Below are positions 16,128 through 32,685 of a stretch of DNA of 64,000 bases, piece after piece (positions within the stretch are counted from its first letter, which is position 1; each line of letters starts with the position of its first letter). The notes beneath the pieces are model-generated. The model saw only the letters and a program-made list of their open reading frames with translations. It searched no databases and was not told the origin of the DNA. Both the position numbers and the translations under genes were made by a program. Origin of the DNA: Dictyostelium discoideum (taxonomy: Eukaryota); the NCBI GenBank assembly GCA_000004695.1, contig CM000151.3, positions 4,416,001 through 4,480,000 of the forward strand, in the 5' to 3' direction.

Positions 16128-18435
16128 ATGGAATTACAAACTATTCCAAATAATATTAGCCTTGCTAATGGAGATAGTAAAGGTGTTCAACTAACATTTA
16201 AAAATATTGTTTATAAGGTTGATAATAAAAAGTATAAAAAATTAGTTAAAAAACAAGAAAAAGCTAAAAAAAAGAATGACACTGAAAGTTCCACTGGTGA
16301 TATGAATACTGGTGTATCAACAACAATCGAAAAAGAATTAACAATTTTAAATAATGTTAGTGGTGTTATTGAAAAAGGTGAATTAGGTATGTAAATAATT
16401 TTTTTTATCTTCAAAAATTATATTGGTTGTTTTTATCATTTTTTTTTTTTATCTCTGTCCTTTTTTTTTTCTAAACATTTTTTTTTATTTTTTTTTATTT
16501 TCATTTTTAGTTGCATTGATGGGACCATCAGGTTCAGGTAAATCAACTTTATTGGATATTTTAGCACAACGTAAATCAACTGGTAAAATAACTGGTCAAT
16601 TATTAGTTAATGGTAAAGAAATTGGTGAAGCTTACAAAAAGGTAATTTTCAATTTTTTTTTTTTTTTTATTATTTTTTTTTTTTTTGTCTGCTTTAATTA
16701 TTAATTGTTGAATAAAAAAATTTTATTTTTTAATTTAGTATTGTAGTTATGTTACACAAGAAGATGTTTTATTACAAACTTCAACTGTATTTGAAACATT
16801 AAAATTTTATGCTGATTTAAAACTTCCAGGTGTTTCTGAAATTGAAAAAATTAAAAGAGTTGAACAAATTATTGAAGATATTGGTTTAACAAAGAGAACT
16901 CATTCAAAGATTGGTGGTGTTTTACCAGGTGGTATTTTAATGAAAGGTTTATCAGGTGGTGAAAAACGTAGAGTATGTAATTAGTTATTATTTAAATAAA
17001 ATTTAAAAGTTTTAAATTATTAATAATATATATATATTTTTAAAAATATTAAAAGGTTAGTATTGGTTGTGGTTTAGTTACAAATCCAAGTTTAATATTT
17101 TTAGATGAACCAACAAGTGGTTTAGATTCAGTTGCAGCATTACAAATTATGAAAACATTATTAAATTTAACATTAAAAGGTGTTACAGTAATTTGTAGTA
17201 TCCATCAACCACGTCCTGAAATTTTTGCATTATTTAATAAAGTAATGGTAATTATTAAAGGTAAAATGATTTATAGTGGTAGTAATATTTTGGAATATTT
17301 TGAATCATTAGGTTATCCATGTCCAAATAATACAAATCCAGCAGATTTTTGTTTAGATTCAGCAGTTGAAATTGGTGAAGGTGAACGTTATACTGAAATT
17401 TGTAATCAATGGCAAAAGATTTGGGAGAATGAATTATTGAATGAGATTGAATATCCACCAGTGAATGTAGAGAAACCAAAAACTGCATCATGGGGATACC
17501 AATATTGGATTCTATTAGGTAGAACATGGAAAGATTTCCTACGTAACCAAGGTAATTTCGTAGCAAGAGTTGGTACCGCAGTGGTTACTGGTTTATTATT
17601 TGGTGTTTGTTTTGCAGGTTTAAAAGAGACTGAAGCTGATGTTCAAAAGATTTTAGGTACAATTTTCTTTTTAATTACTGGTTTAAATTTAACACCTTTC
17701 GCAGTGATTTCATTATTCCTTTCTGGTAGAACTCTTTTCAACGCCGAGAGAGCTTCTAAAATTTACCATTCTTTCCCATACTATATGGCGATGGTAACTG
17801 TGGAAACTTTAATTGTATTTTTGGTCGCATTGATTAATGCAGCAATTTGTTATTTATTCGCTCATTTACGTTGGACTGCTGGTCACTTTTTCTTTGCAAT
17901 TATGGTTTATTTCTTTGTTCATTTACTCTCTGATTTTATGATTTCAACAATTGCTAATTTAACTGGTACTAGTGATATGACTTTTGCTTATGGAAGTATG
18001 TATTGAATTTAATCATCTCTAAAAATAATATTTAAATTTTATTTACCTTTGGTACTAACTTTTTATTAAATTTTAAAAATAGGTGGGCTTTCTGTAATTT
18101 ATATGTTATTTGCAGGTTTTTACGTGCCAACAAATGAATTACCAAAATCATTTGGTTGGTTACATTGGGTTAATCCACTTTTTTATTCATTTGTTTCTCT
18201 TGTTGTAAATCAATTTGAAGATTTACCTTTAGAATGTACAAGACCAAATATCCCGGTTGGAAATTCTACTATTCAAATACCATGTCAATTTAGTAATGGA
18301 AATCAAGTTATTGAATATTATGGTATAGATGATTGGACAAGAGGTAGTTCATTTGGTGTTGTTGTTGCATGGACTGTTTTCTTTTTCTGGACTTCATACC
18401 TTGCATTACACTTTTTAAACAAAGAAAAGAGATAA
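16128..18435 (+). CDS. abcG: ABCG-family half transporter (NBD then TMD), paralogue A. 5 exons: 16128..16386, 16511..16641, 16739..16972, 17056..17995, 18083..18435 (about 638 aa)
   Basis: Walker [20 protein letters not shown] signature LSGGEKRRV and Walker [12 protein letters not shown] are present. A 6-helix TMD with the ABCG-type loop follows. Donors are GTATGT, GTAATT, GTATGT and GTATGT; acceptors follow T-rich tracts (tttttAG, aatttAG, aaaAG, aaaatAG). Each exon is in frame with the corresponding track ORFs (16128..16394, 16423..16704, 17149..18006, 18103..18435). Confidence 0.85.
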
Positions 18436-18459
18436 AAAAAAAATTAATTAAAATATTAA

Positions 18460-18516
<57 letters not shown>

Positions 18517-19027
18517 CCATCAACATCAGTATAAAAAATTAATAATAATTATTTTCAAAGTGGCCATCTTGACTTTCACTAATAACAAAATATTTTTTGT
18601 GAAAAGGTTGTGGTTTAAGGGTATTTTTGTCGATAAGTAACCAAATCGATTAATTTTTTTTTAAAAAAAAAAAAAAAAAAAAAAATAAAATTTTCATTTT
18701 CTCAAAAAAATTTTTTTTTCTTAGAAATCTAATCTTAAAAAAAAAAAAATTAATTTTGGGGATAAATGATCAATTTTACAAAAAAAAAAAAAAAAAAAAA
18801 CAACAGATTGTGTGTGATTAGTTTTATTATAATTTTAATATTAAAATAATGGGGATAAAATTTTATATATATGAAAATTTAAAAAAGTGCACTATTTTAT
18901 TTATAATTCCCCACATCAGTATATTTTCTAAATAAGCTTGATCGGTTTACAAAAAACCATGTTCAATCTAAATATATATTTTTTTTTTTTTTTTTTTTAA
19001 ATAAATAAAAAATTCTTAAATTTTAAG

Positions 19028-19076
<49 letters not shown>

Positions 19077-19256
19077 AAAAATATAAAAATAGAATAAAAT
19101 CTTTTTTAATCACTAATTAATATTTTTATTTTAAAAAAATATAAAAATATATTTTTTATATTAATTTTAAATAATATATAAAATAATTAAATTTTTGAAT
19201 TAAAAAAAAAAAAAAAATTTGAAATTAAGAATTTGTTTAATTAATAGATTGAAAAA

Positions 19257-21528
19257 ATGGAGTTGGAAACAATAGAATATAATAAAAGTTTTAATATTTG
19301 CGAAAATGGAGATAGTAAAGGTGTTCAACTTACATTTAAAAATATATCTTATAAGGTAGAAAATAAAAATTATAATAAAAATAAAAAAGAAAAAAATAAA
19401 AATAAAATTGATCCAGAATTTGTTAACCTAGATAATAAAACAGAGAATTCAAATGAAAAAGAAATTACTATTCTATATAATGTTGGTGGTGTTATTGAAA
19501 AAGGAGAATTAGGTAAGTAAATAATTAATTGATTTTTTTTTCTTTTGAAAATGATTTTTATATCTATCCTTTTTTTTTTTTTTTTTTTTTTTTTTATTTT
19601 TATAAACTTTTTTTTTTTTTTTCTAAACTTTTTTTTTTATTTTTTTTTTTTTATTTTTATTTTTAGTTGCATTGATGGGACCATCAGGTTCAGGTAAATC
19701 AACTTTATTGGATATTTTAGCACAACGTAAATCAACTGGTAAAATAACTGGTCAATTATTAGTTAATGGTAAAGAAATTGGTGAAGCTTACAAAAAGGTG
19801 ATTTTTTTTTTTTTTTTTTTCGTCTATTTAAAATTAATTACTAATTGTCGATTAAAAATTTTTATTTTTTAATTTAGTATTGTAGTTATGTTACACAAGA
19901 AGATGTTTTATTACAAACTTACACTGTATTTGAAACATTAAAATTTTATGCTGATTTAAAACTTCCAGGTGTTTCTGAAATTGAAAAAATTAAAAGAGTT
20001 GAAAAAGTAATTGAGGATGTAGGTTTAACATTGAAAAGAGATTCAAGGGTTGGTGGGGTTTTGGCAGGAGGAGTTGCTGTTACTGGTTTATCAGGTGGTG
20101 AAAAACGTAGAGTATGTATTAAACAAATAGTTAATCATTATAAATCATAATTAACAATTTTTTTTATTTTTTTTTAATTAATTTTTTTTAAAAGGTTAGT
20201 ATTGGTTGTGGTTTAATTACAAATCCAAGTTTAATATTTTTAGATGAACCAACAAGTGGTTTAGATTCAGTTGCAGCATTACAAATTATGAAAACATTAT
20301 TAAATTTAACATTAAAAGGTGTTACAGTAATTTGTAGTATCCATCAACCACGTCCTGAAATTTTTCAATTAATTAATAAAGTAATGGTAATTATTAAAGG
20401 TAAAATGATATATAGTGGTAGTAATATTTTGGAATATTTTGAATCATTAGGTTACCCATGTCCAAATAATACAAATCCAGCAGATTTTTGTTTAGATTCA
20501 GCAGTTGAAATTGGTGAAGGTGAACGTTATACTGAAATTTGTAATCAATGGGAAAATAAATGGGAGAATCAACTAACTAATGAAATTGAATATCCATCTT
20601 TGAATGTTGATATTCCAAAAACAACTTCATGGGTATACCAATATTGGATTCTCCTAAATAGAGAATGGAGAGGATTTATTAGAAATAAAGGAAATGCATT
20701 ATCAAGAGTAATCACAGGTATGTACATTTATATTAATTTTTATTTTAATAAAATCCAATAATAAAATTATTAATATTAAATTGAAATATAGCAATTGTTA
20801 TTGGAGCACTTTTTGGATCGTGTTTTGCAGGTCTTAAAGAATCAGATGCAGATGTTCAAAAAATTATGGGTACACTTTTCTTTTTAACCACTGGTTTAAT
20901 GTTATCACCATTTTCAATGATTACTCTTTTCCTTTCAGGTAGACAATTGTTCAATTCAGAGAGAGCTTCAAAAATATATCATTCTTTTCCTTATTTTTTA
21001 TCAATGATTACTGTTGAACTAACGATTGAATTCTTTGTAACATTGGTAGAAGTAACAGTTTGTTATATGTTGGCTCGTTTGAGGATGGATGCCGGTAGAT
21101 TTTTCTTTGCTGTTTTAGTATACAGTTTTATTCACTCACTTTCAACCTTTTTTATTAGTTCATTAGCTAATTTGACTGGTACAAGTGATTTAACATTCTC
21201 ATATGCTTCTTCATTAAGTGTTGTTTTCATGCTATTTGCAGGTTTTTATGTTCCTACAAATGAATTACCAAGAGCATTTGGATGGCTTCATTGGGTCAAC
21301 CCAGCATTTTATGGTTATTCTTCAGTTGTAATAAATCAATTTGAAGATTTACAATTAAAGTGTACAGATGAACCATGCAAGTTTACCAATGGAAATCAAG
21401 TTATTGAATATTATGGAATTGAAGATTGGACAAGAGGTGGATCATTTGGAGTTTTGGTAGCTTGGGCAACATTTTTTTATTCATTAAGTTATTTTGCATT
21501 GCACTTTTTACACAGAGAAAAAAGATGA
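19257..21528 (+). CDS. abcG: ABCG-family half transporter, paralogue B (tandem duplicate of A). 5 exons: 19257..19512, 19667..19797, 19878..20111, 20195..20717, 20792..21528 (about 626 aa)
   Basis: The motifs and the first three intron positions match paralogue A, and exons 2 and 3 are the same length (131 and 234 nt). The fourth intron (GTATGT at 20718 to atatAG at 20791) is at a different position from A. Across the site where A has its fourth intron, B reads straight through ([20 protein letters not shown]). Confidence 0.85.
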
Positions 21529-21705: not shown

Positions 21706-22808
21706 TTATCTACTTTTATTTAAATCAGCACGAGTTATAAGTCTATTCATTGGAGAATTTGGGTCAACTTGATTTCTATTTGAAGAGTTTAGTTCTGGAT
21801 GTGATTGAATTCTTTGCATTGAAGAATTTAAATCAGCTCTACTATGATTTCTAATCATTGAAGATTGAATTTCACCGTGTGGACTTCTTTGTTGAACTGT
21901 TGAATTAAATTCAACACGTGGTGAACCAACTCTTAAATGTTGTGGATTTATATCAGCATGGGAGATAATTCTTTGATTTGGAATATTATTTAATCTATGT
22001 TGTGGAACTGTTCTTAATGTTGATGGATTAACTTCAACATGAGATGTTAAAACTCTTGGAATTGGATGATTAAAATCTGGATGTGAATACATTCTTGGCA
22101 TTGAACTATTTGAATCTGGAACGTGTCCGGCGAATCTTTGCATTGTAGAATATAAATCTGGATGAGAACTAATTCTATTCATTGAGTTTAATTCTTGAGT
22201 TGAAGCAATTTTCTTAATTGAAGAGATGATTGAATTCTTTCTTTGATTATAACCTTCATCATCAACAAATTCAGAATTTGATTCTAAATTTAAATCTTTA
22301 CTATCAGCATCTGAATCAATTGATTCATCATCATCATCGTCATCATATGGATGGTGACCATTACTAAGATTACGACGGTGATGTGTACCACCACTACCAT
22401 CTTTGGTTTCATTATTATTATTATCGTGATGGTGATGATGATGTGGTTTCTTTTCATCATATCTTGATTTCTTTTCTTCCATATAGTTCTTGTAATCTTG
22501 ACTGAATGGGAGTGGAATATCCTTGAAATGACTATAGGTATCAGCACATTGAACATGTTCACTTTCAACACGGAAGAAAATGAATTGAGCAGCCCATGCA
22601 ATTTCAGACAATGAAAACCAGAATAAAAACAATGGATGATCTAATTTATATGATGTACCTTGTCTAATTGAAAAAACAATTAACCATACAAATCTAAAGA
22701 ATGTATCAAATGACATTGCAACATAATAAACCCATTTTCTTTTAAATACCATTTTTTCTCTTAATGGCCATTGTTTATTAGTTTTATAATTTAAAAATAA
22801 ACCTATTT

Positions 22809-22852
<44 letters not shown>

Positions 22853-24733
22853 TATTAATATAAATTAATTATTAAAAAAAAAAAATAATAAAATTAAAAA
22901 ACTTACCCCAATCAACAGTAAAATCAGCATAAAGTTTATAAACTGTACCAACGACATTGATGATAAACCATAAGATTTTAATCCAACTCCATTCCTTATT
23001 ACCATAATTATTTGCAACCCATAAAAGAATATTAGTAACAATTGAAAATGTAGATCTAATAGCACTAGTTATATGTGGGAAGAATTGACCAGTTTCCCAG
23101 AAACGACGTACACATTGCATAACACGCCAGTAGAATGGTAAAACACTTAAAATTGGGAAGATTACAGCTTTATGTTTAAAACAAACACCAGATGGAGAAT
23201 AAAGTGGATCATTAAATTTAAACATACAGACTATTTGTTGCATATTGAATAAAAATTCACCCAAACATAATAATTGTACAGACATAAAGAAATCTGGGAA
23301 TCTAACTGGAACGAATGGGGCTTGAACAACTTTAGACATTTTATGTAAAACCCAAAATCTAGTACGATGAGCCAATACTTTAAATGGTAGAATTAAAAAG
23401 AAAATTGAACCCAAGATAAATAACAATGGAATTAAAAGTAAGTAACGAGAAGTTTCTGGACTACCAGTTTTATTTGAAATTGAATCAACATAAACATTGA
23501 AAACCACTAGCCACATTGTTACAAAAATCATACCATACATTAAATATCTTGATGAAGATCTTTTAATATCAGGTTTTAGTTCAAAAATAAATACATAATT
23601 AATACCAGCTTTCTCCCATAGTTTAGTCATCAAAGCAAATAAAGTACCGAGAATAATTGGTAAAGAGGAAATACGGAATAGCAACCAAGCCATTGGAGAA
23701 TTTTTGGGAGAATCAGCAACATCTGGGAAATAATAATAAAATTTGAAAATTACTTGAGCAATTAAAATAGCACTTGCACCAATTAAGAAACCAATAATAT
23801 AATTTTGAAATTGATTAACTTGTTTATTGGTTCTAATTTGATTATTTGCCAATTTAATATCATTACCAGTGAAATAACGAGCGTAAATTTGTTTAATTCT
23901 TCTTGATAACTCTCTAACTGGACTATTGGTAGAGGTTAATCTTGTATTTTCTAAATATTTTCTACACTCTTTGGCAATTCTTGGATTTATTTTTTCATAT
24001 TTATCCAATATCTTATAGAAACCATCCAAATTCAAATTTTTATAAGATTCTAATGATTCCAAATAATGGTAGTTATCATGGAAACCTTGTTTAACATAAT
24101 CAATATTTCTTATGGTTCTTAGTTGTTCATTATCTGATAAAAATGGAATCATACCAACCAGATCGACACATTTGAATTTAGTCTTTCTATAACGGTCAAC
24201 AAAGAATATATCCACTTTATTTACTTGATCAATGAAACCGTCTTGAAAAGTTTCTTGTGGAACGAATACAGTAGCACCTGTAATATTATTACTTGCAACC
24301 ATTTCAATTTGAGATGAAATACCACCACCATCCAATTGAAATTCGTCACCTTCAATCTCACTACTACTACCGAGACCTTTGTTTTTTGGTGAACGTGATA
24401 CCATTCTACTTAATCTATTATTTGTATTTTTGGCTATTTTTTTCAATCTTTTAACACCTTTATTAATTCCTTTTTTAACTTTAACTCTACTACCAGCTGT
24501 TGCTGTTATATTTATAATCTCACCATTATCATCAATAACCAATTCATCCATTTCAATCTCATCATCATCACCACCATCTTCATCACCAACAACACCATTA
24601 CCATTTTCATTTTCATCATCTTCATCTTCACCAGAACTTTCTTGTGGAGCCATTTGATTTGGTATTGAAATATTATTTGAATTTGTTTGTTCACCATCTT
24701 TTAATGTATTATTATTATTATTATTATTATTTA

Positions 24734-24797
<64 letters not shown>

Positions 24798-24971
24798 TTT
24801 ATTTATATTATTTTGTTCTTCTGGGGATAATGGTAAATCAATTATTGCACTATTTAATATTTCAGCATTTATATATTCATTGTCTATTAAATTTTTTAAA
24901 TATTCATAATCTATATATTTATCTCTCCAATGACTAACTTTATTATCTTTTAAATAATCTCTAAATTTCAT
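21706..24971 (-). CDS. SPX-EXS domain membrane protein (XPR1/PHO1-like phosphate exporter family). 2 exons: 24971..22907 and 22802..21706 (about 1053 aa)
   Basis: The N-terminus MKFRDYLKDNKVSHWRDKYIDYEYLKNLI is a canonical SPX start. A poly-Asn/acidic insert and then about 8 TM helices follow. The EXS region spans the intron (…FTVDWG | LFLNYKTNKQWPLREKMVFKRKWVYYVAMSFDTFFRFVWL). Donor is G|GTAAGT at 22906 and acceptor aaaaaatAG at 22804/22803, giving a 104-nt intron. The track ORFs 22872..24971 and 21706..22752 are joined in frame. Confidence 0.85.

Positions 24972-26898: not shown

Positions 26899-32685
<5,787 letters not shown>

Follow-up and report, generated by a model that had tools for sequence, protein, structure and literature searches.

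How do two neighbouring genes of one family, alike in the places of their first three introns, come to have their fourth introns in quite different places? The question arises in a stretch of 64,000 nucleotides (nt) of Dictyostelium discoideum DNA (GenBank assembly GCA_000004695.1, contig CM000151.3, positions 4,416,001 to 4,480,000 of the forward strand), hereafter the window, in which two genes for ABCG half-transporters, abcG12 and abcG8, stand head to tail with a spacer of 821 nt between them. The best explanation for the locus as a whole, and one that we consider probable, is that the genes are tandem duplicates, that gene conversion has acted on their ATPase-coding halves, and that each of their membrane halves separately gained a private intron.

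That the two are tandem ABCG half-transporter paralogues had been proposed in an initial annotation made from the DNA sequence, and both Pfam domains and reference proteins bear this out. The first gene, abcG12 (gene A), occupies positions 16128-18435 of the window on the plus strand and has five exons coding for 638 amino acids; the second, abcG8 (gene B), occupies 19257-21528 on the same strand and has five exons coding for 626 amino acids. By exact-sequence look-up, the spliced abcG12 model is identical, residue for residue, to Q8T685 / XP_644137.1, and that of abcG8 to Q86HQ2 / XP_644138.1 / AAL91493.1, i.e., these are the D. discoideum AX4 ABC transporter G family members 12 and 8. Since the spliced translations equal the reference proteins, all eight introns, the fourth ones included, are already part of the AX4 reference gene models, and the structural facts are known. 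The parts of the two genes are as follows.

abcG12 exons, plus strand: 16128-16386, 16511-16641, 16739-16972, 17056-17995 and 18083-18435 (259, 131, 234, 940 and 353 nt)
abcG8 exons, plus strand: 19257-19512, 19667-19797, 19878-20111, 20195-20717 and 20792-21528 (256, 131, 234, 523 and 737 nt)
Intron 1, plus strand, phase 1: abcG12 16387-16510 and abcG8 19513-19666, from the spliced models
Intron 2, plus strand, phase 0: abcG12 16642-16738 and abcG8 19798-19877, the only position widely shared in the family
Intron 3, plus strand, phase 0: abcG12 16973-17055 and abcG8 20112-20194, a position of the D. discoideum complex only
abcG12 intron 4, plus strand, 17996-18082: 87 nt, phase 1, inside Ser codon 522 (A/GT), after AYGS
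abcG8 intron 4, plus strand, 20718-20791: 74 nt, phase 1, inside Ala codon 382 (G/CA), SRVIT/AIVIGALFG
abcG12 site homologous to abcG8 intron 4, plus strand, 17578/17579: uninterrupted in the codon alignment, ACC G^CA GTG
abcG8 site homologous to abcG12 intron 4, plus strand, 21208/21209: uninterrupted in the codon alignment, GCT T^CT TCA

The first three introns thus lie at the same alignment positions and in the same phases (1, 0, 0) in both genes, with an exon 2 of 131 nt and an exon 3 of 234 nt in each, as the initial annotation had it. Its coordinates and junctions for the fourth introns also hold, being confirmed by the exact protein match, and each gene is indeed uninterrupted where the other has its intron. 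The distance had been misjudged: the two sites lie not about 370 codons apart but 140 codons (420 nt), after codon 381 in abcG8 and codon 521 in abcG12. At the site of abcG12 intron 4, the serine codon of abcG8 is TCT, not AGT, a difference to which we return below.

Before the history of the fourth introns can be discussed, it must be asked whether both are introns at all. The eight introns all run from GT to AG, their G+C content is 0.06-0.15 vs. 0.21-0.32 for the exons, and each of them, if read through, meets an in-frame stop within 2-24 codons. Intron 4 of abcG12 (GTATGT..ATAG, G+C 0.15) contains a TACTAAC branch-like motif and would bring in a stop after 3 codons if retained, and intron 4 of abcG8 (GTATGT..ATATAG, G+C 0.09) would shift the frame by its 74 nt. 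The initial annotation had allowed that one of them might stay unspliced, leaving a truncated gene or pseudogene, with gene A ending at 18006 or gene B at 20761, and the six-frame open reading frames do end at those two positions. Such an outcome appears very improbable, as the exons downstream of the private introns align gap-free to every homologue, the protein alignment is collinear and gap-free across both fourth-intron splice junctions, and the ratio of nonsynonymous to synonymous divergence (dN/dS) between orthologues is 0.05-0.10 in the membrane half, to which the exon following each private intron belongs. Purifying selection on the downstream exons, together with the collinear alignment, means that the gene models are not a chance effect. 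Furthermore, the positions of the two introns are kept in three to four species while their lengths and sequences drift, and the reference annotation splices both. The indirect evidence, evolutionary and from annotation, that both fourth introns are spliced out is therefore strong. In a simple hydropathy scan, abcG12 intron 4 falls in predicted transmembrane helix 5 and abcG8 intron 4 at the start of predicted transmembrane helix 1 (the scan gave 5 peaks in abcG12, where helix 5 was just below the threshold, and 6 in abcG8), and removal of both introns would be needed for the full membrane domain with its putative six helices.

The wider distribution of the introns was mapped over 20 genes, i.e., the two genes of the window and 18 relatives obtained by protein search, cluster look-up and contig look-ups. 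They include tandem pairs from D. citrinum, D. dimigraforme and D. firmibasis, the flanking genes of which match those of the window where they were captured, and 12 genes from species beyond the D. discoideum complex: a set of four from D. purpureum, of which two stand in tandem, a more distant D. purpureum pair, a Polysphondylium violaceum pair and four single genes, from Heterostelium album, Cavenderia fasciculata, Tieghemostelium lacteum and Acytostelium subglobosum. Annotated proteins were placed on their own DNA with an exact spliced mapper and all intron positions were projected on one alignment. Every abcG8 orthologue of the D. discoideum complex, four in number, has an intron at the abcG8 intron-4 site, of 74 nt in D. 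discoideum, 58 in D. citrinum, 66 in D. dimigraforme and 69 in D. firmibasis, and the other 16 genes have none there. At the abcG12 intron-4 site, an intron is present in three of the four abcG12 orthologues (87 nt in D. discoideum, 95 in D. citrinum and 175 in D. dimigraforme) and missing from all 12 genes that lie outside the complex; the fourth orthologue, that of D. firmibasis, reads on uninterrupted at the site as GCT TAT GGA AGT GGT (L002 9747-9857; L numbers are our handles for the comparison loci).

A comparison with D. purpureum and other orthologous loci had been proposed in the initial annotation as the way to polarise the change, and with both sites empty in the 12 genes outside the complex it points to gains. 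Two separate post-duplication intron gains, whose direction and timing we infer, are the most parsimonious reading. For the abcG8 intron, one gain on the stem suffices on any of the three possible clade arrangements and loss alone needs at least three events; the gain, at codon 382, would have come prior to the split between D. firmibasis and D. discoideum. For the abcG12 gain, inside Ser codon 522, two dates come into question: the common ancestor of D. discoideum, D. citrinum and D. dimigraforme, or an earlier time, after which D. firmibasis would have lost the intron precisely. In either case, an ordinary GT-AG spliceosomal intron would have been acquired by each membrane half on its own.

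Post-duplication loss and gain, or intron sliding, had been offered together in the initial annotation, and these alternatives fared differently: the post-duplication timing stands and gains are favoured, while sliding is excluded and a differential loss of ancestral introns is unlikely. Sliding would require one ancestral fourth intron to have migrated differently in each copy, and with 420 nt between the sites, all of it coding sequence that is conserved and collinear in the two genes, we give it practically no credence. Short-offset cases elsewhere in the family, of 1 nt (abcG12 against D. firmibasis abcG8) and 9 nt (intron 1 against D. purpureum), may fit such a process.

A history of loss alone deserves more thought. 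Both introns would then go back to the gene before it was duplicated, or to the common ancestor of all group-4 species (D. purpureum and the D. discoideum complex), and would have been lost reciprocally by recombination with complementary DNA (cDNA). The general record favours losses, as a genome-wide study counted 441 intron losses vs. 40 accepted putative gains in D. discoideum, about 11 to 1, with the losses biased toward 3' introns and cDNA recombination the dominant mode in Dictyostelium (PMC4683709); at this locus, D. firmibasis abcG8 has an intron in the serine codon equivalent to codon 522, so that both paralogue lineages are occupied there. Set against this, the 12 genes outside the complex are all without an intron at either site; the ancestor would have needed about 14 introns in a lineage that averages 1.5-1.9 per spliced gene (PMC3188802); and the abcG8 genes that have no intron in the serine codon carry TCN there, as the outgroups do, and not the AGY expected from precise loss. 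We consider loss alone quite unlikely, and the 40 gains against 441 losses indicate that gains in D. discoideum, if uncommon, are real.

The relationships of the genes were taken from a neighbour-joining tree with bootstrap, built on the membrane domain, which is unconverted (see below). It supports an abcG8 clade (100%), an abcG12 clade (100%) and a clade of D. purpureum genes only (99%). Several points weigh against two private gains as the history of the locus. The branching order of the abcG8, abcG12 and D. purpureum genes is weak (56% bootstrap), and no flanking genes are common to the window and the three D. purpureum loci, so that the orthology of the D. purpureum genes is judged from sequence alone; given these two facts, the duplication may be older or younger than the split from D. 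purpureum. The place of D. firmibasis as outgroup of the other three species comes from abcG12 and abcG8 only (75% and 43% bootstrap, and synonymous divergence, dS). The serine-codon intron of D. firmibasis abcG8 could point to an intron already present at the site when the paralogues began to diverge. The exact junctions of both fourth introns gave no matches in JGI metagenome contigs, collections that are unlikely to hold D. discoideum cDNA. Finally, no source for the private introns was found when they and the extra D. firmibasis abcG8 intron were used as blastn-short queries against the 64-kb window and 12 loci; the matches listed, all to abcG12 intron 4, were AT-rich low-complexity sequence of 11-17 nt. 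Introns that come from transposons or belong to a multicopy ('introner') family would have many near-identical copies in the genome, with terminal repeats or target-site duplications; at the junctions examined, there were no direct repeats longer than 2 nt.

If the fourth introns are private, why are the first three not? The answer would seem to lie in the nucleotide alignment of abcG12 and abcG8, which is a mosaic of near-identical tracts and diverged parts.

Conversion tract 1, plus strand: abcG12 16503-16864, matching abcG8 19659-20003, with identical runs of 141, 61 and 81 nt
Conversion tract 2, plus strand: abcG12 17049-17412, matching abcG8 20188-20551, with 6 differences in 364 nt
Unconverted island in exon 3 (exon 3b), plus strand, 108 nt, between the tracts: abcG12 16865-16972, matching abcG8 20004-20111

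Tract 1 takes in the last part of intron 1, exon 2, the 3' part of intron 2 and exon 3 up to its nucleotide 126 (exon 3a), and tract 2 takes in the ATPase domain from Walker B through to its end. The identical runs over both tracts are 141, 61, 81, 149, 44 and 96 nt, the 3' ends of introns 1 and 2 included. Identity between the paralogues is 100% in exon 2 and 98.2% in exon 3a, vs. 92.7-96.2% between abcG12 orthologues, and the paralogue dS is 0.025 in the converted parts vs. 1.04 in the membrane half. As orthologue dS between D. discoideum and its sister species is 0.22-0.30, the two D. discoideum copies are, in the converted parts, nearer to each other than to their own orthologues. Exon 1, exon 3b, intron 3 and everything from 17413 on have a paralogue identity of only about 70-78%. 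Paralogue identity that exceeds orthologue identity, at synonymous and non-coding sites too, and sharp boundaries are the marks of interlocus conversion, and the near-identity of the ATPase halves indicates recent interlocus gene conversion between the copies. D. firmibasis has had its own recent conversion, with a paralogue identity of 100% in exon 2 and 99.1% in exon 3a and identical ends of intron 2.

The island between the tracts encodes the segment directly before the LSGGEKRR signature, and within it there are 29 differences between abcG12 and abcG8 in the 81 nt of 16865-16945. In all four species, the paralogues are 76.6-79.8% identical in exon 3b, while abcG12 orthologues are 96-99% identical there, and this suggests that selection keeps exon 3b matched to each copy's own membrane domain. 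In its tracts that reach into intron ends, and in its sharp boundaries, the locus is like interlocus conversion in tandem paralogues generally; unlike the general case, conversion here is confined to the ATPase half and skips the 108 nt of exon 3b in four species. Thus, the ATPase-coding half with introns 1-3 would have been repeatedly homogenised between head-to-tail tandem duplicates, and that would keep these introns in register, while the membrane-domain half would escape and diverge; both fourth introns would stay private because conversion does not reach the membrane halves. Neither the private gains nor the conversion mosaic were met with in the literature searched, which left out the 2002 paper on the ABC family, and Miranda et al. 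2013 do not mention abcG12 or abcG8.

The serine codon of abcG12 intron 4 has a further history. D. firmibasis abcG8 has a fifth intron (L002 12776-12841, 66 nt, G+C 0.14), which would give an immediate stop if retained, and which lies in the same serine codon as abcG12 intron 4, 1 nt downstream, i.e., AG/C vs. A/GT. A serine stands at the codon-522 position in 18 genes. Its codon is TCN in 13 of the 14 that have no intron there, including the four D. purpureum genes, those of Cavenderia, Tieghemostelium and Acytostelium, both of P. violaceum, and the abcG8 genes of D. discoideum, D. citrinum and D. dimigraforme. The exception is D. firmibasis abcG12, and AGY is found in only five genes: the three abcG12 genes with intron 4, D. 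firmibasis abcG8 (AGC) and the intron-less D. firmibasis abcG12 (AGT). By our own estimate, from 15 credible sites over about 1,900 nt, a pair within 1 nt would be expected by chance about 0.1 times. The near-coincidence by itself is only suggestive, and the correlation with codon class adds weight to it.

From this, it might be argued that at codon 522 there was only ever one older intron, shared by or passed between the paralogues, shifted by 1 nt and then lost reciprocally, from D. firmibasis abcG12 and from the abcG8 genes of D. discoideum, D. citrinum and D. dimigraforme. The common serine codon, the offset of a single nucleotide and the rarity of such pairs by chance speak for it, as does the limitation of AGY to the intron-bearing genes and D. 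firmibasis abcG12, whose AGT fits a precise removal. Such a course of events would need the 1-nt slide, two losses and a reversion from AGY to TCN in abcG8, and the D. firmibasis membrane-domain sequence that flanks the site is unconverted, with 70.7% identity between the paralogues. The two introns have no detectable similarity, a point that counts for less when even orthologous introns are unalignable. On balance, we regard a single older intron as unlikely.

That the serine codon of transmembrane helix 5 is instead a recurrent site of intron insertion is a possibility that we put forward tentatively, and with more doubt than belief. It may have received two independent insertions, each after a switch of the serine codon had given a splice-site-like context, in which case the AGT of D. 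firmibasis abcG12 would be the pre-insertion state. Alternatively, there may have been a gain on the abcG12 stem, a precise loss in D. firmibasis that left AGT, and a separate gain in D. firmibasis abcG8; or the intron may have been transposed between paralogue transcripts by reverse splicing and cDNA recombination and then precisely lost from D. firmibasis abcG12.

Over the 20 genes there are 16 distinct annotated intron positions, at least two of which are probable annotation errors. The intron 2 position is present in 14 of the 20, including the P. violaceum genes and the distant D. purpureum paralogues. In the group-4 genes, every intron is AT-rich, and, if retained, all but one would run into an in-frame stop in about 50 codons or fewer; the lone exception, intron 2 of one D. 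purpureum gene, shifts the frame. Orthologous introns keep their positions, and of their sequences only the splice sites and a TACTAA-type branch motif can be aligned. D. dimigraforme provides examples of changed length: its abcG12 intron 4 (L012 3765-3939) owes its 175 nt to expansion by a long run of (AAT)n, and its abcG8 intron 2 (L012 5492-5873) is 382 nt. These lengths show that intron length is labile while position is fixed.

Some positions do differ between close relatives. Intron 1 keeps its phase but is placed differently, the D. discoideum complex having it exactly 9 nt to the 3' side of where it lies in each of the four D. purpureum genes. The junction reads ..GGTGAATTAG/gt in the complex and ..AAAAAG/gt..ag/GTGAACTAT in D. 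purpureum, and nine bases, GTGAAYTAK, stand before intron 1 in the former and after it in the latter.

Intron 1 offset sites: window 16378-16386 and 19504-19512; L001 10287-10379 and 13396-13474; L003 4215-4319; L004 4209-4280

This offset may be a short-range relocation of the intron, for which it is a candidate. Intron 3 sits between EKRR and VSIGCG; in the D. purpureum genes, a third intron is found at one or the other of two different positions or is missing, differences that speak for a high intron turnover of the family within the group-4 species. As to the annotation errors, the model of D. purpureum 153305 (L010 2903-2993) skips the H-loop (SIHQP), and that of Cavenderia fasciculata (L006 5861-6313) has a 453-nt terminal intron in place of the conserved C-terminus; both are probably wrong. 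A second near-coincident pair of introns, at alignment columns 369 (phase 1) and 370 (phase 0), was rejected, as it comes from the same probably mis-annotated 153305 model without the H-loop.

From their sequences, both proteins are ABCG (White/WBC-type) half-transporters, with the ATPase domain N-terminal to the membrane domain (the reverse order). Pfam places ABC_tran at residues 74-229 and ABC2_membrane at 356-566 of the abcG12 protein, and at 75-228 and 355-565 of the abcG8 protein, and the Walker A, ABC signature, Walker B and H-loop (SIHQP) motifs are intact in each. Their nearest solved structures are Cdr1/Pdr5, ABCG2, plant ABCG25/16, ABCG5/8 and ABCG1 (PDB matches with E = 1e-50 to 1e-86). 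Human ABCG2, ABCG1 and ABCG5/ABCG8 and the fungal Pdr5/Cdr1 have the same domain order and ATPase motifs as the amoeba pair, and the solved ABCG-type transporters likewise have the last extracellular loop between two conserved cysteines. The amoeba pair departs from ABCG5/G8 in that the Walker A, signature, Walker B and H-loop motifs are canonical in each of the two proteins, and hence nothing suggests an asymmetric obligate heterodimer. We know of no substrate or dimer partner for either protein.

abcG12 last extracellular loop, plus strand, 18241-18288: 16 residues, with an NST sequon at 18262-18270
abcG8 counterpart of this loop, plus strand, 21367-21381: DEPCK, from the alignment

The initial annotation had described the loop as a 16-residue insertion. 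The loops do differ, by 16 residues vs. 5, so that the net indel is 11, and against the outgroups the difference is in part an insertion in abcG12 and in part a deletion in abcG8. The abcG12 loop is the longest, the D. purpureum genes have one of intermediate length with an N-x-S/T sequon, and in abcG8 the loop segment and the sequon have been lost.

The window as a whole is very AT-rich (G+C 0.17-0.39 per 2 kb). The spacer between the genes (18436-19256) is nearly pure A/T, with A runs to about 65 nt, and a comparison of it with the region upstream of abcG12 gave low-complexity matches only, with no similarity that stood out. Upstream lie a coiled-coil gene and a helicase gene, both on the minus strand. 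The downstream neighbour is an SPX-EXS gene with two exons, also on the minus strand (window 21706-24971, intron about 22753-22871), which is in a conserved position in D. citrinum and D. dimigraforme and was not found in the captured D. firmibasis flank. Further on, at 26899-29349 on the minus strand, there is a long Ser/Thr-rich open reading frame with many TGLFGS-type repeats that resembles an FG-repeat nucleoporin; the long antisense reading frames over it are probably artefacts of composition.

The origin of new spliceosomal introns is poorly understood, and dated, unambiguous gains are scarce; discordant introns between paralogues, on the other hand, are a familiar pattern. The criterion used here, presence in D. 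discoideum and absence in D. purpureum, Heterostelium (P. pallidum) and Cavenderia (D. fasciculatum), is the same as that of Ma et al. 2015 (PMC4683709), who accepted as gains those introns that are missing from D. purpureum and from three outgroups further away. Nearly all of their cases lack a source sequence, and none was found for the abcG12 and abcG8 introns in the window and the 12 loci. Neither gene was matched in the supplements of that study, which were searched by name and by guessed identifiers. Unlike in that study, the newer genomes of D. citrinum, D. dimigraforme and D. firmibasis allow the events to be dated within the D. discoideum complex. That dating of two gains, the conversion mosaic and the same-codon intron of D. 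firmibasis are what is new here.

The locus is a new example of known phenomena and leaves current understanding unchanged. Its value lies in two private introns, each assignable to a short branch inside the D. discoideum species complex, and it may also show an intron loss and a near-coincident second insertion; if the serine codon were truly a recurrent site, it would be a rare case of a datable gain, a near-coincident regain and a loss among close relatives. All of this lies in a model organism in which splicing and gene replacement are directly testable, and the conversion mosaic is in its own right a small-scale experiment of nature that bears on which portions of an ABC transporter have to evolve together.

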